Below, piece by piece: positions 2,181-5,636 of a stretch of DNA of 8,446 nt. Position 1 is the first letter of the stretch; each line of letters starts with the position of its first letter. Under the pieces are notes generated by a model. It was given only the letters and a program-made list of their open reading frames with translations, did not search any database and was not told where the DNA came from. This DNA is from a virus (Duplodnaviria > Heunggongvirae > Uroviricota > Caudoviricetes), in the IMG/VR virus record IMGVR_UViG_2740892235_000006, one strand, 5' to 3'. A program made the translations under genes and the position numbers.

Positions 2181-2228
2181 TTTGCTGCTCCTCATCATAT
2201 CGACCCTGCAAGGTCGGTTGGTTTCTCC

Positions 2229-2317
2229 ACAAAACAGAGAAGAACACCTGCGGTGGCAGCCGCCCGGATGGATTGGGTTATGAGCCCGTCGCCCGGTGAT
2301 GCTCTTCTCTGTTTTGT
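2229..2317. repeat. 16-bp inverted repeat (15 of 16 match), acaaaacagagaagaa at 2229-2244 and ctcttctctgttttgt at 2302-2317, with a 57-bp GC-rich spacer
   Basis: Seen directly; it abuts the terminator U-tract and lies in the 5' leader of the 120-aa gene. Confidence 0.6.
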
Positions 2318-2363
2318 AAAAAGAGCGGTACCAGCCGGAAGCAAGTGTACAAACTGGTACCGC
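2316..2363 (-). terminator. Candidate rho-independent terminator on the leftward transcript, upstream of the 120-aa gene
   Basis: Perfect 10-bp inverted repeat gcggtaccag (2325-2334) and ctggtaccgc (2354-2363) with a 19-nt loop. On the minus-strand RNA the 3' arm is followed directly by UCUUUUUAC (reverse complement of 2316-2324). Confidence 0.5.
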
Positions 2364-2786
2364 CAAAGCAGTGGCTGTTGTGGTGGGGTTGTCACTCAGG
2401 CGTATGGTCAACCTGACAATCCGGTGTCCTCAACGGGGAAAGAGTAACCCCGCCATACTTACCGCCGCGCCATTTCGCGGATTACCACAACGCTGAGAGC
2501 ACTTAGCCAGTTACGGCACCACACTTTGTCGTGGTTCCATAAATGCCCTCATCGTTGCACCCTGGTCTCTTCCCAGGTGTCAAACCGAACCGCCACGCTG
2601 GTTAGGCGTCTTATCAGCATCATCATTGACTTGCACATTCCGGCTACCTGGTTTGTTTGCCCGAGCAAGGAGTGGATTGTCCCCTTTAACGTCCCCAGAC
2701 CGCTAACGACGCATGTGCCATACGCCGTGTTACAACCAAATTTTGTTAGGACCTTGTTTGTTGGTCTGGAAAGAAAGATAAAATGA

Positions 2787-2840: not shown

Positions 2841-2860
2841 AAAAGCCACCTTCTGGTGGC
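2841..2860 (-). terminator. Candidate intrinsic terminator just downstream of the repressor gene
   Basis: Stem gccacc (2845-2850) and ggtggc (2855-2860) with loop ttct. On the minus-strand RNA the stem is followed by UUUU (reverse complement of 2841-2844). It starts 22 nt past the repressor stop. Confidence 0.45.
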
Positions 2861-2881: not shown

Positions 2882-3574
2882 TTAATTGTGTCGCTTAAGG
2901 GTTTGTGACTGACTGATTAAGACCTTCCCAAAGACCATAAACCGGTGTTCGTTTTCGCTGGTAATTCCCCATTCACGGTAAATCTGGTTATCAGAAATCA
3001 CCAGTAGTTTGTCAGGTATCATTTGCAGTCGTTTGACATAAATTTTATCATCAAAACCAAACACATAGATACCATCCCCATCAAACTGATTGATACTGAT
3101 ATCAACGAAGATGAGATCTCCTGGCTCAATGGTTGGACACATACTGTCCCCACGAACGTTGATAACTTTAATGTGATTGGCTGGTCGTCCTCCAAACATC
3201 GATACAGCATTATCAGTTATGTATTCAATGGCATGAATCACATCAATGACATCACCGCCCTGGATAAGGCCATTTCCCGCACTGGCACTGACATCCAGCA
3301 TTTCAATACGGAATACATCCTTCACCTGCGCAACATCCTCACCAGTACTGTTTTTACATACAGTATTACTTTTGAAGTCTGAGGTAAAGAGATCTGCAAT
3401 ATCAACACCTAAGCTCCTGGCAATATTACTCAGGGCTTGTTCAGTGAATTGTTTCTGCTTACCTGTTTCCAGGCGTGAGATATTCGCCGCATCCACTCCT
3501 ATTGCTTCAGCGAGATCGGCGATTTTCATGTTCTTCGCCTGGCGAAGTTGTCTGACTCGATTTCCTATGTTCAT
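2882..3574 (-). CDS. CI-type phage repressor, 230 aa: N-terminal XRE-family helix-turn-helix plus C-terminal S24 (LexA-like) autopeptidase
   Basis: N-terminus MNIGNRVRQLRQAKNMKIADLAEAIGVDAANISRLETGK is a typical HTH. C-terminal half carries the S24 signature GDSM (catalytic Ser) and a downstream YVKRL (Lys). It is divergent from the cro-like gene. No SD precedes the ATG. Confidence 0.9.
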   Translation of the reverse strand: MNIGNRVRQLRQAKNMKIADLAEAIGVDAANISRLETGKQKQFTEQALSNIARSLGVDIADLFTSDFKSNTVCKNSTGEDVAQVKDVFRIEMLDVSASAGNGLIQGGDVIDVIHAIEYITDNAVSMFGGRPANHIKVINVRGDSMCPTIEPGDLIFVDISINQFDGDGIYVFGFDDKIYVKRLQMIPDKLLVISDNQIYREWGITSENEHRFMVFGKVLISQSQTLKRHN

Positions 3575-3671: not shown

Positions 3672-3932
3672 ATGCAATCACCATTACGAAATGTGCGTAA
3701 GGCGCACGGATTTACTTTGCAGCATGTTGCTGCGGGTGTTCAGGTTAATCCAGCGACGCTGAGTCGTATTGAGAGACTGGAACAAATTCCATCTATCGAT
3801 CTGGCAGAGCGTCTGGCCAATTTTTTTAAGGGAGAAATCAGCGAAATGCAGATTCTCTATCCTGCTCGCTTTCAATCTAGTCAAAACCGGAATGAGTTAA
3901 AACCACAGGAAAAGGAGGTAAGCCGTGGGTAA
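3672..3932 (+). CDS. Cro-like XRE-family helix-turn-helix regulator, 86 aa
   Basis: First gene of the rightward operon, divergent from the repressor. HTH-like segment FTLQHVAAGVQVNPATLSRIERLE. SD GGAGG 4 nt upstream of the ATG. Its 3' end overlaps the next gene by 8 nt. Confidence 0.8.
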   Translation: MQSPLRNVRKAHGFTLQHVAAGVQVNPATLSRIERLEQIPSIDLAERLANFFKGEISEMQILYPARFQSSQNRNELKPQEKEVSRG

Positions 3933-4476
3933 GCATCACTGGAAAGTGGAAAAACAGCCTGAGTGGTACGTGAAAGCGGTCAGAAAAACTATCGCGGCGT
4001 TGCCGGGTGGTTACGCTGAAGCAGCTGAGTGGCTGGATGTAACAGAGAACGCTTTATTCAATCGCCTTCGTGCCGATGGCGATCAGATTTTCCCGCTGGG
4101 ATGGGCAATGATTTTACAGCGCGCGGCTGGCACTCACTACATTGCGGATGCTGTCGCACAGTCTGCTGATGGGGTGTTTGTATCGCTTCCTGACATTGAG
4201 GAAGTAGAGAACGCCGATATAAACCAGCGCCTGCTGGAAGTCATCGAACAGATCGGGAGTTACTCAAAGCAGATTCGTTCGGCAATCGAAGATGGGGTAG
4301 TGGAGCCACACGAGCAGACAGCAATGAATGATGAGTTGTATCTGTCAATTTCGAAGCTCCAGGAGCATGCGGCACTGGTCTACAAAATTTTCTGCGCTCC
4401 AGAAAAGAGTGACGCCCGCGAGTGTGCAGCTCCGGGCGTCGTGGCGTTTTGTGTCTGTGGAGAAACTAACGCATGA
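3925..4476 (+). CDS. CII-like phage regulatory protein (resembles the phage 186 CII / CP76 type), 183 aa, GTG start
   Basis: Strong SD AAGGAGG 6 nt upstream of GTG 3925. Position is immediately after cro. Segment ALFNRLRADGDQIFPLGWAMILQRAAGTHYIADAVAQ resembles the 186-CII-type family from memory. Confidence 0.65.
   Translation: MGKHHWKVEKQPEWYVKAVRKTIAALPGGYAEAAEWLDVTENALFNRLRADGDQIFPLGWAMILQRAAGTHYIADAVAQSADGVFVSLPDIEEVENADINQRLLEVIEQIGSYSKQIRSAIEDGVVEPHEQTAMNDELYLSISKLQEHAALVYKIFCAPEKSDARECAAPGVVAFCVCGETNA
4409..4457. terminator. GC-rich hairpin with pyrimidine/U-rich flanks on both strands inside the 3' end of the CII-like gene; candidate bidirectional terminator
   Basis: Stem gacgcccg (4411-4418) and cgggcgtc (4433-4440), extendable by 3 bp inside the loop. 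Minus-strand RNA continues ACUCUUUUCUG. Plus-strand RNA continues GGCGUUUUGUGUCU. Confidence 0.4.
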
Positions 4477-5636
4477 ACAGTTTAACGGCAAATAACCGTT
4501 TGTCGCAACAGCTGGTGGTCAGTGTCGCTGCACACCTGTTGTTACGGCATGAATGCAGATTACCAAATCACCTGGCTGTAAGTAACCACAGAGAACTTTA
4601 CCTGACTGTGGGGGGCGAGTTGTGCAGGAACTTAACCGCTGGTTTCGTGACGGAAGAGGACTTTATGTTCATGTTATTCGTTGGGAGCCAGAAACACAGC
4701 GCGTTATCTATCTTCGCAAAGACTACCCGCATGAGTGCTTTAGTCCTTTGTGGAAATTCAGGCGTGATTTTGTTGAGTGTGAAGGACCAGCAGCATATTG
4801 ATTCTGCAATTCCGGGACGTTACACTGTACCGGCACCTTATAAAGCGGGTGCCGGGATTGGCGTCCTGAAATTGATTACTGAGCATAACCGCGCTCATGC
4901 GGTTTTTTCGTGTCATGAGCATTGCTACGCCCAAATTATGGTGGGGCGTACAGGGCCGACTTCGGTCGGGCCGGGTTCGGTAGTCTCCGGTAACGCCAAC
5001 CCTGTACGTCTCACCACCTCTGTGATTGGCGTCCCATGTGGTGAGTTTTCTAAAAAACTGACTACCGGGGCTGTCACTATGACTACTCTCCCAACCCTCT
5101 CTCAACCTGAAATTGCCATCGTTGATGGTCAGGCTGTTACATCTTCTTTGGCTGTTGCTGACTTCTTCTCTAAACGTCATGACGATGTTCTGAAAAAGAT
5201 CCGCATTTTGGATTGTTCTCCAGAGTTTTGTGCCCGCAATTTTGCGGAGACATCAATTTTGGTACGCCAGCCCAACGGCGGTACTCGCAAACTTCCCTGC
5301 TATCAAATCACCCGCGACGGTTTTGCGTTTCTTGCCATGGGCTTCACTGGTAAACGTGCTGCCCGGTTCAAAGAGGCATACATCAACGCCTTTAACCTGA
5401 TGGAGAAACAGCTTTCAAAGCCCGCTGTACCGAGCGACGTTGCACATAACGCCAGCGTTCTCTGTTCCTACATTTCATCAATTCATCAGGTCTGGCTGCA
5501 GCAGCTTTATCCTATGTTGGCAAAAGCCGAATCTCCGCTGGCTGTTAGCTTATATGACTATATTAATGATGCTTCGGCGCTGGCCTGCCTCATAAATTTG
5601 TCGCTGAACCCTTCAGAGGCAAGGGGGCGCAAATGA
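4473..5636 (+). CDS. 387-aa ORF with a C-terminal Rha-family phage regulatory domain (residues about 203-387) and an N-terminal 200 aa of uncertain coding status
   Basis: ATG 4473 overlaps the CII-like stop (ATGA). The segment from M203 (ATG 5079), MTTLPTLSQPEIAIVDGQAVTSSLAVADFFSKRHDDVLKKIRIL...YQITRDGFAFLAMGFTGKRAARFKEAYINAFNLMEKQL, matches the Rha signature (FGKRHDNVLRDI-like, MGFTG). The upstream 600 nt is open in frame but rich in rare codons (tta, ggg, aga, agg). A G6 run at 4610-4615 connects to a second open frame. Confidence 0.6.
   Translation: MNSLTANNRLSQQLVVSVAAHLLLRHECRLPNHLAVSNHRELYLTVGGELCRNLTAGFVTEEDFMFMLFVGSQKHSALSIFAKTTRMSALVLCGNSGVILLSVKDQQHIDSAIPGRYTVPAPYKAGAGIGVLKLITEHNRAHAVFSCHEHCYAQIMVGRTGPTSVGPGSVVSGNANPVRLTTSVIGVPCGEFSKKLTTGAVTMTTLPTLSQPEIAIVDGQAVTSSLAVADFFSKRHDDVLKKIRILDCSPEFCARNFAETSILVRQPNGGTRKLPCYQITRDGFAFLAMGFTGKRAARFKEAYINAFNLMEKQLSKPAVPSDVAHNASVLCSYISSIHQVWLQQLYPMLAKAESPLAVSLYDYINDASALACLINLSLNPSEARGRK

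Follow-up and report, generated by a model that had tools for sequence, protein, structure and literature searches.

An intrinsic terminator and an adjacent three-way-junction RNA in the early-left leader of a lambdoid prophage without N

This work concerns the leader of the early-left operon in a stretch of tailed-phage DNA of 8,446 nt (IMG/VR record IMGVR_UViG_2740892235_000006), which is referred to below as the window. Our analysis showed that an intrinsic terminator and a long inverted repeat directly downstream of it form together in one minus-strand RNA, and that the repeat is the basal helix (P1) of a conserved three-way-junction RNA, which we call H3. The two are probably adjacent and compatible RNA elements in the leader of the leftward promoter (PL) operon of a prophage that lacks N, and not an attenuator. 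Positions 2160-2900 of the window are 100% identical to the Escherichia coli chromosome NZ_CP027462. The region belongs to a lambdoid prophage of the SfV/mEp460/cdtI/ST64B type and is located between a cI-like XRE/S24 repressor gene and yfdP-yfdQ-yfdR. Both features are found on the minus strand in the untranslated leader of about 590 nt that runs from PL and cI to yfdP. The interval of about 700 nt between the repressor gene and yfdP contains no RefSeq gene in the source genome and no N-like open reading frame (ORF). The features that carry the argument are as follows.

2318-2364, minus strand: intrinsic terminator of the early-left leader (from sequence, fold, rapid amplification of cDNA ends [RACE] and homologous contexts)
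2223-2326, minus strand: H3, a three-way-junction RNA of about 104 nt (P1, P2, P3), flanked by the U-tract and GGAGAA (model R1, alignment A1)
2298-2317, minus strand: P1 5′ arm ACAAAACAGAGAAGAGCAUC, the right arm of the inverted repeat (repeat search, fold, covariation)
2229-2248, minus strand: P1 3′ arm GGUGUUCUUCUCUGUUUUGU, the left arm of the inverted repeat (repeat search, fold, covariation)
2264-2296, minus strand: P2 hairpin, whose covarying closing helix CCGGG/UCCGG surrounds the invariant apical module
2270-2290, minus strand: invariant module GAC-GGG-CUCAUAA-CCC-AAUCC, with CGGGCUCAUAACCC at 2288-2275 (comparison with tRNAfMet, metZ)
2250-2263, minus strand: P3, a short variable hairpin GCGG-CUGCCA-CCGC (fold; alignment columns 66/101 and 67/100 covary)
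2223-2228, minus strand: GGAGAA directly 3′ of P1, conserved, pairing with the U-tract in read-through RNA (probabilities 0.81-0.98)
2319-2492, minus strand: the window's putative allele of the small RNA from the leader (sRNA-17 family); homology puts the 5′ end at CGUUGUGG
2487-2557, minus strand: "Unit A", a long hairpin with covarying arms of the H3 P1 type (CAACGAUGAGGGCA / UGCUCUCAGCGUUG), without the apical module

The terminator and the inverted repeat

The first-pass annotation, made from the letters of this DNA alone, proposed that the leftward operon has an intrinsic terminator in its leader, and this proposal held. The stem is a perfect 10-bp helix between GCGGUACCAG (2363-2354) and CUGGUACCGC (2334-2325), separated by 19 nt and followed by UCUUUUUAC. 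When G·U pairs are counted it extends to 13 bp (2364-2352 with 2336-2324), with a free energy (dG) of −21.2 kcal/mol. Its loop is unusually long, about 15-19 nt, and an automated terminator scan limited to loops of 8 nt or less missed it. The U-tract lies at 2322-2318, the stem being followed by UCUUUUU, and is 137 nt ahead of the yfdP ATG at 2180. The order in the minus-strand RNA is ...UUUGGCGGUACCAG-UUUGUACACUUGCUUCCGG-CUGGUACCGC-UCUUUUU-ACAAAACAGAGAAGAGCAUC..., with a G+C-rich hairpin directly before a U-rich tract, as expected of an intrinsic terminator.

Homologous loci keep this arrangement with other sequences. A run of at least four T abutting P1 was found at the site in 115 of 123 unique homologous contexts, and an abutting hairpin with a dG of −10 or lower together with the T-run was found in 104 of the 123, the stems falling into at least six unrelated families. 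BLAST placed mosaic boundaries exactly at 2365 and 2323. At this site the T-run and the hairpin, and with them the function, are kept while the sequence is replaced. This is a real Rho-independent terminator.

The 3′ end has also been mapped in vivo. sRNA-17 is a 193-nt RNA from the mEp460-type prophage of E. coli K1 strain RS218, characterized by 5′ and 3′ RACE and Northern blot, and its 3′-RACE end in RS218 reads ...GGUACCGCUCUUUU (PMC7719688). On the mEp460-type allele this end is ...CCGCUCUUUU. The "full-length" primers for sRNA-17 have the 3′ end ...CUGGUACCGCUCUUUU and the 5′ end CGUUGUGGUGAAU, and span 194 nt in mEp460. Since the terminator at this 3′ end is identical in mEp460 and the window, the mapped end at its U-tract provides, from a near-identical allele, an in vivo 3′ end for the terminator described here. 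The source genome, as CP027462.1, appears in the alignment of "degenerative sRNA-17s" (PMC7719688). The window's allele shares with the RS218 RNA the 5′ motif CGUUGUGG, the closing helix, the CCACAACAGCCACUGCUUUGG segment, and the terminator. In the fold, GUUGUGGU (2490-2483) pairs with ACCACAAC (2385-2378) and closes a three-hairpin body, after which comes the terminator. The body at 2492-2369 differs in sequence, with a different module in the central 110 nt or so. As a side observation, 2373-2426 matches part of an Actinobacillus phage at 94% identity, and this piece recurs as a mosaic module of its own in phages of the PPompW type.

As for the repeat, which had been described as 16 bp, both arms are located where they were placed, and complementarity is perfect over 15 bp (2229-2243 with 2303-2317). 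The 16th position (A2244/C2302) is a mismatch in DNA and a G·U pair in the minus-strand RNA. A repeat search extended the arms to 25 nt with 84% complementarity (2229-2253 with 2293-2317). When the window was shuffled 100 times and perfect inverted repeats with spacers of up to 100 nt were sought, the longest reached 8-13 bp, versus the 15 bp observed. The perfect repeat abuts the U-tract and does not overlap it as had been stated; in the RNA fold, about five wobble pairs between the U-tract and GGAGA extend P1 (probability 0.81-0.98).

The same annotation read the terminator and the repeat as mutually exclusive structures, as in an attenuator, where the long-range helix and the terminator are alternatives that decide read-through. 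The position of the repeat against the U-tract and the pairing of the P1 extension with that tract gave some reason for this. However, we consider it very improbable. The minus-strand RNA from 2400 to 2181, whose fold had been suggested as a check for alternative structures, folded at −88.6 kcal/mol (z = −5.15, none of 200 shuffles as good; z = −2.74 for the plus strand of the same stretch), and in its ensemble all 10 of the terminator pairs and all 16 of the P1 pairs had a probability of 1.0. P1 lies wholly 3′ of the terminator stem and shares none of its nucleotides; only the U-tract is shared, through the wobble pairs. In an attenuator, part of the terminator stem must be able to pair in an alternative helix before the terminator is complete, and the fold ensemble contains no such helix. 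Because the 3′ arm of P1 is made about 90 nt past the release site, P1 cannot influence the termination decision. Nascent RNA folded up to position 2345 showed no stable sequestration of the 5′ arm of the terminator. Unrelated terminator hairpins occur ahead of the same, unchanged H3, and this excludes any conserved pairing with the arms of the terminator. These predicted folds indicate that the terminator and P1 coexist and form no on/off switch, so the attenuator reading is not supported. Competing pairings do exist further upstream, where CGUUG may pair with an upstream CAACG that closes Unit A or within GUUGUGGU/ACCACAAC, and termination regulated from upstream elements, with the repeat playing no part, is conceivable.

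Structure, conservation and distribution of H3

The P1 basal helix of H3 has 20 bp. P3 varies in homologues as a hairpin of 14-45 nt, and GGAGAA was present in all H3 homologues inspected. The leaders of mEp460, ST64B, Citrobacter phiNP, Salmonella F1055, and E. coli LLS all have the same H3 directly after a differing terminator. Alignment A1 was built from 36 representatives, reduced from about 200 further viral-contig loci. In A1, 94.5% of the cells in paired columns were paired, and the compensatory changes that the annotation had asked for in the repeat arms were found: the arms are conserved, and nine pairs have changes on both sides. There were 58 two-sided cells versus 19.9 expected, and none of 500 shuffles reached the covariation score. 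When the 3′ partners were slid, pairing fell to 36-49%. For example, P1 column 18/116 is G-C in 18 sequences and C-G in 17, and column 24/110 is A-U in 24 and G-C in 10. The closing helix of P2 occurs as CCAGG/CCUGG, CCAUG/CAUGG, and CCGAG/CUCGG.

The evidence also places the element at the RNA level and on one strand. With the covariance model R1, the minus strand of the window scored 112.6 bits (E = 3.6e-34) and the plus strand 41.5 bits. A1 has U·G and G·U pairs in columns 28/106 and 12/122, and the lengths of the element (104, 107, 108, 112, 123, 127, and 131 nt) differ by numbers that are not multiples of three. These wobble pairs, the strand asymmetry, and the lengths together exclude a DNA palindrome or an ORF. 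An element acting in DNA, such as a palindromic protein site or a cruciform, or a coding gene (mEp460 gp36, e14 ymfH, or the ORFs 2253-2447 on the plus strand and 2195-2395 on the minus strand), is therefore hardly credible, although the repeat is also a palindrome in DNA and ORFs have been annotated over H3 in mEp460, cdtI, and e14. In DNA and in the opposite strand the wobble pairs would become A·C mismatches, the strand asymmetry amounts to 71 bits, the length differences would shift a reading frame, the mosaic breakpoints at 2365 and 2323 fall inside the supposed ORFs, and the source genome has no RefSeq gene here. The paired protein-binding site in DNA, which had been offered as the other explanation of the repeat, is not supported, on the same grounds: G·U pairs are confined to the minus strand, the two strands score 112.6 versus 41.5 bits, and covariation keeps the pairing and not the sequence.

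ORFs have been annotated over the leader RNA structures (the terminator, H3, and others) elsewhere, namely "ymfH" of e14 (locus L291, 2324-2635) and gp36 and gp37 of mEp460 (locus L002, 3094-3647). Judging from the indel pattern and the mosaic breakpoints, ymfH, gp36, and gp37 are probably not genes.

No Rfam 15 family covered H3 at the gathering threshold in a search of the whole window, and none did in 16 distant loci. In a scan of the region with E values up to 10, the only match was the hairpin ribozyme, at 14.5 bits against a gathering score of 65, on the plus strand at 2232-2255 in the left arm. This resemblance (AAACAGAGAAG, CGUUGUGGUA) was rejected on its score and on the full pairing of P1 at the would-be loop A. 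Kissing between the P3 and P4 loops (of UGCA type; P4 is the next hairpin, described below) was also rejected, the complementarity by eye being inconsistent across variants. Literature searches, which included the ST64B small RNAs, ymfH, and phage tRNAfMet mimics, returned no description of H3, and the Pas sRNA preprint concerns other loci.

H3 was found in 2809 of 5426 complete E. coli genomes (52%). The genome scan found full-length H3 throughout Enterobacteriaceae and Erwiniaceae, with scores above 100 bits in Citrobacter, Enterobacter, Klebsiella, Kosakonia, Buttiauxella, Mixta, Erwinia, and others. There is one copy in the 44.5-kb mEp460 genome and one in the window. With R1 and R2, no second copy was found in the rightward promoter (PR) or late operons of the window or in the mEp460 genome, and none was found in HK022. 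In early-left and late operons alike, H3 usually stands just past the first terminator. In the late-leader types, as in Klebsiella Chronis, Pantoea PA-1, Raoultella, and other prophages, an H3-type junction follows an intrinsic terminator in the interval from Q to the lysis genes, and in one case it comes after a tRNA-Asn gene. In loci L080 and L056, H3 comes directly after a promoter without a terminator. K-12 has two degraded cases. In e14, P1 is intact and the module has decayed, upstream of xisE and under the annotated ORF ymfH; in CPS-53, H3 is lost. The yfdP leader of CPS-53 has been replaced by iteron-like (ori) repeats (GATTTTGACGGGTCAGATTTTGATGCGTCAG..., locus L215, 7400-7520), which are joined to the last 30 nt or so before the yfdP start, and this rearrangement removed PL, the terminator, and H3.

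Beyond these families, genome and metagenome scans found a 41-nt minimal hairpin or bare module in Planctomycetes, Acidobacteria, Alpha-, Gamma-, and Deltaproteobacteria, and Saccharibacteria. There the module is flanked directly by a helix whose sequence is different in every case. In alignment A2, made of 27 diverse sequences, eight of nine closing pairs showed two-sided changes, with a covariation score of 0.436 versus 0.160. The distant contexts are all mobile: the module occurs upstream of lambda-type portal genes, just past a major capsid gene, next to GP88 or HNH genes, and upstream of rolling-circle Rep genes. Distant matches without flanking stems, for example inside coding regions, were treated as chance and discarded. 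H3 is a discrete, mobile RNA module, present in one copy per phage, and its distribution is unusually wide.

Two distant loci deserve separate mention. In Edwardsiella phage PEi21 (locus L294, 2390-2586), a promoter-like site at 2390-2418 is followed by a diverged module (2499-2523, 27.9 bits) and then by a strong terminator (2559-2586), in a unit that points opposite to the neighbouring structural genes, an arrangement that suggests a stand-alone RNA gene of about 160 nt. The metagenome contig Ga0157373_10178472 (locus L287, 1495 nt) contains the module twice, 1372 nt apart at the contig ends, which suggests a circular element of about 1.37 kb; a rolling-circle Rep (REP_ORF2-G2P) is encoded just downstream of the module.

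The apical module and possible roles of the RNA

At the tip of P2, CGGGCUCAUAACCC is identical over 14 nt to the anticodon arm of E. coli tRNAfMet (metZ), including three G-C pairs and the CAU anticodon. In all, 16 of 17 aligned positions match this arm, a result equalled by none of 1000 shuffles, and model R2 scored the module at 55.1 bits. The motif scans were anchored on the module, but one of them fixed the flanks only and left 13 central bases free. That scan returned GGGCUCAUAACCC (CUCAUAA) 83 times, CUCAUUC 19 times, CUCAUUA 15 times, and GGGCCCAUAACCC (CCCAUAA) three times. This indicates that C(U/C)CAU and the G-C pairs are constrained while the last two loop positions are free. Loop variants ending in AC or CC were absent from viral contigs. 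ARAGORN found no tRNA or tmRNA in the window or in eight homologous loci; a tRNA gene or tRNA-like cloverleaf was rejected on this result, as the anticodon arm alone is shared. GACGGGC (2284-2290, minus strand), with which the module begins at its 5′ side, is complementary to the universally conserved positions 1401-1407 of 16S rRNA (GCCCGUC, the 1392R/1406R primer site), which may be a coincidence.

From these features we propose the following working model. The terminator ends a leader-derived RNA, probably of the sRNA-17 family, and would act as a gate, with yfdP and the downstream early-left genes remaining silent unless RNA polymerase reads through. H3 is then made only on read-through transcripts, in the 5′ untranslated region (UTR) of the first early-left gene. 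P1 may insulate and present the apical hairpin, and the module (three G-C pairs plus the CUCAU loop) may bind a factor with specificity for the initiator anticodon arm. Such a factor could be the peptidyl (P) site of the 30S subunit, methionyl-tRNA synthetase (MetRS), or a tRNAfMet-cleaving nuclease of the VapC type. A cut by RNase III in the long helix may free the module and define the 5′ end of the mRNA.

A more specific suggestion, which we regard as rather doubtful, is that the apical hairpin might be a mobile-element decoy of the initiator-tRNA anticodon arm. Phages and small replicons across several phyla would make such a decoy early, as part of the first transcript to read through or as an RNA of its own. 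The decoy would either titrate a host factor by which tRNAfMet is inspected or attacked, for example an anticodon nuclease of the VapC type, or dock in the 30S P site and redirect initiation. VapC toxins of Shigella and Salmonella cleave tRNAfMet, and the H3 carriers SfV, SfII, SfIV, and ST64B infect Shigella or Salmonella. If the suggestion is true, an RNA-based anti-defence or translation-hijack device is present in half of all E. coli genomes.

Several points weigh against our reading of the leader and of the module. PL is an inferred promoter, placed from its sequence, and an ArcA-bound promoter inside the leader has been reported by the authors of the sRNA-17 study (PMC7719688). The in vivo 3′ end was mapped in a related allele in another strain. 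The invariance of the module is partly a product of the anchored scans, and about nine chance matches are expected by our own arithmetic in the 596-Gb genome scan. Loop positions 6 and 7 vary (AA, UC, UA, AC, CC, AU), the equivalent of U33 is C in some variants, and only three stem pairs are tRNA-like, while the flanks GAC and AAUCC are equally invariant and are not tRNA-like. The expression data belong here as well. Deletion of sRNA-17 raised yfdP 95-fold and also raised yfdR, and the authors took the rise of yfdP to be a trans effect (PMC7719688). The deletion was built with pKD3, and removal of the cassette is unmentioned (PMC7719688), which makes a cis effect on read-through the simplest reading of the rise of yfdP; it is an ambiguous datum.

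Two other functions were weighed for H3. One is RNase III processing, in which P1 would be cleaved, the leader and terminator would be detached from the yfdP mRNA, its 5′ end would be set, and its stability or translation would change. We hold this to be possible, though not probable; it would be compatible with a function of the apical module and does not exclude one. RNase III acts on double-stranded RNA of about 20 bp or more, and P1 has 20 pairs plus five wobble pairs, about two helical turns. A central mismatch is conserved in 32 of 36 homologues (column 20/114), and phage RNase III sites often have internal loops. In several distant examples the total helix below the module is also about 18-21 bp, and positions in 5′ UTRs or between genes are typical of phage processing sites. 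In addition, the mapped 5′ end of sRNA-17 falls inside the 3′ strand of Unit A, which suggests that this type of hairpin is processed. The arms of Unit A covary in six loci, where its matches to R1 are weak but collinear in six of six, and in Pantoea phage PA-1 the module is found on arms of this type; Unit A is probably both a paralogue of H3 and a processing site. However, RNase III needs little sequence specificity, which leaves the 17 nt that are invariant across phyla without an explanation, and the closing helices of some minimal versions are only 7-10 bp.

The other is a cis-acting processive antiterminator or anti-Rho RNA like put of HK022, which would replace the missing N: H3 would bind its own polymerase and make the operon resistant to termination. 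There is no N homologue between PL and yfdP, H3-type elements start long operons, in L080 and some metagenomic cases just after the promoter, and a universal partner such as RNA polymerase would explain the invariance across phyla. A put-type RNA has been speculated by others for relatives such as phage LLS (PMC12315714). Nevertheless this function is unlikely. Local alignment of H3 with putL and putR scored 16-20, which 28-195 of 200 shuffles reached, versus 35 for putL against putR. There is one H3 copy per phage and none in the PR operon of the window, and R1 and R2 find none in HK022. H3 is located downstream of the only clear terminator of the leader, a simple scan of the mEp460 left operon found no further intrinsic terminators on that strand, and some H3 elements follow a Q-dependent terminator, where the polymerase is already modified. 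Homology with HK022 put was rejected by the alignments against shuffles and by the model searches. Separately, a boxA/nut reading of the boxA-like CGCUCUUUUUAC was rejected, this sequence not being conserved in homologues with other terminators.

The reading we prefer for the locus as a whole, a terminator followed by a compatible structured RNA, bears on several subjects. For sRNA-17 it accounts mechanistically for the 3′ end and makes a cis effect the likely cause of the change in its strongest "target", yfdP. The tip of H3 copies the most diagnostic part of the initiator tRNA, which makes translation initiation and tRNA-targeting defence candidate processes. For phages without N, H3 offers a concrete handle on control of the early-left operon.

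The surrounding leader and comparison with known systems

The other features of the leader and its neighbours are listed below. The leader of a very common prophage family, annotated as empty or as dubious ORFs, can now be re-read as a series of structured RNAs.

2180-2178, minus strand: start codon ATG of yfdP
2193-2188, minus strand: Shine-Dalgarno sequence GAGGAG of yfdP
2201-2216, minus strand: P4, a small hairpin CGACC-UUGCAG-GGUCG between H3 and the yfdP ribosome-binding site (fold)
2803-2798 and 2780-2775, minus strand: putative −35 (TTGCAT) and −10 (TATCTT) elements of PL, aligned by eye with the PL regions of ST64B and e14
2826-2812 and 2803-2789, minus strand: left operators (OL) TTGCGCAUCUCGCAA and TTGCAUAAUGCGCAA, with the motif TTGCGCnnnnnGCAA shared with the right operators (OR)
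2841-2860, minus strand: terminator of the cI-like repressor gene, GCCACCAGAAGGUGGC followed by UUUU (from sequence; an equivalent mEp460 site was found by scan)
2882-3574, minus strand: repressor gene (cI-like)
3672-3932, plus strand: cro-like gene

Operators of the TTGCGCnnnnnGCAA type are present on both sides, at OL and at OR, and homologues have a hairpin with a (U/G)GCAG-type loop at the place of P4. About 10 nt past the −10 element of PL, a conserved RNA-like module of about 65 nt (AACAGGCAGGACGCCCACGAAGUAGCC...GGAUGAUUCG) was found in ST64B, phiNP, F1055, and e14 (L291, 1520-1600). This is the position of putL in HK022, and the module is absent from the window's allele.

Two further observations concern the window outside the leader. 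Near-exact tandem duplications occur in 1500-2170 (1500-1596 with 1613-1709, 99%; 1785-1966 with 1978-2159, 97%), with a run of N at 1967-1976. They are an artefact of scaffolding or assembly, since yfdP and yfdQ are single-copy in the complete genome; they break the yfdP and yfdQ frames in the window and leave the region described here untouched. On the plus strand, Rfam identified isrK (59.3 bits, 4833-4909) and C4 antisense RNA (82.3 bits, 4934-5021) inside a 387-aa ORF (4473-5636), a Rha-family regulatory protein according to RefSeq, so that either the ORF or the RNA annotation needs re-examination. The isrK/C4 pair looks like a c4/isrK immunity RNA module of the P1/P7 or Gifsy type in a lambdoid right operon.

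Among known systems, sRNA-17 of RS218 is the closest: locus, strand, and terminator are the same, and its RACE 3′ end is the U-tract described here. The terminator itself is ordinary and was in effect mapped already. The sRNA-17 paper differs in that the word "terminator" is absent from it, and no description of the downstream element was found there (PMC7719688).

The lambda PL leader is similar in general plan. It contains terminators and the RNase III hairpin of the N leader, and both leaders have a long structured hairpin on the read-through RNA, between PL-proximal signals and the first early-left gene. However, here there is no N gene and no nutL boxA/boxB, and H3, which combines a three-way junction with an invariant module, extends to late leaders and to other phyla. 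The late leader of lambda, with 6S RNA and tR′, resembles the H3-type elements of Klebsiella, Pantoea, and Raoultella, which lie between Q and the lysis genes past the first late terminator. To our knowledge, lambda has no H3-type element and no function has been assigned to its sequence after tR′.

With HK022 the likeness is that of a protein-independent structured RNA early in the leader of a lambdoid phage without N, as described for putL and putR (PMC9378689); according to an annotation note, the HK022 repressor is related to the ST64B-type repressor. Read-through by put depends on the zinc-binding domain of the RNA polymerase β′ subunit, and the put copies lie downstream of both early promoters, ahead of the terminators that they suppress. 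H3 differs in having no sequence similarity to put, in occurring as one copy and not two, in standing after the first terminator and not before it, and in forming a three-way junction, unlike the two-hairpin V shape of the put RNA of about 70 nt.

The thrS operator of E. coli mimics a tRNA anticodon arm in an mRNA leader. H3 is comparable to mimics of this type in that a leader hairpin reproduces a specific tRNA anticodon stem-loop, here 14 nt of tRNAfMet, but H3 is found on a mobile element and not in a synthetase gene, its loop varies at positions 37-38, and a conserved asymmetric internal loop stands in place of the lower stem. H3 is a new RNA family of a familiar kind, a structured phage leader RNA with tRNA mimicry.

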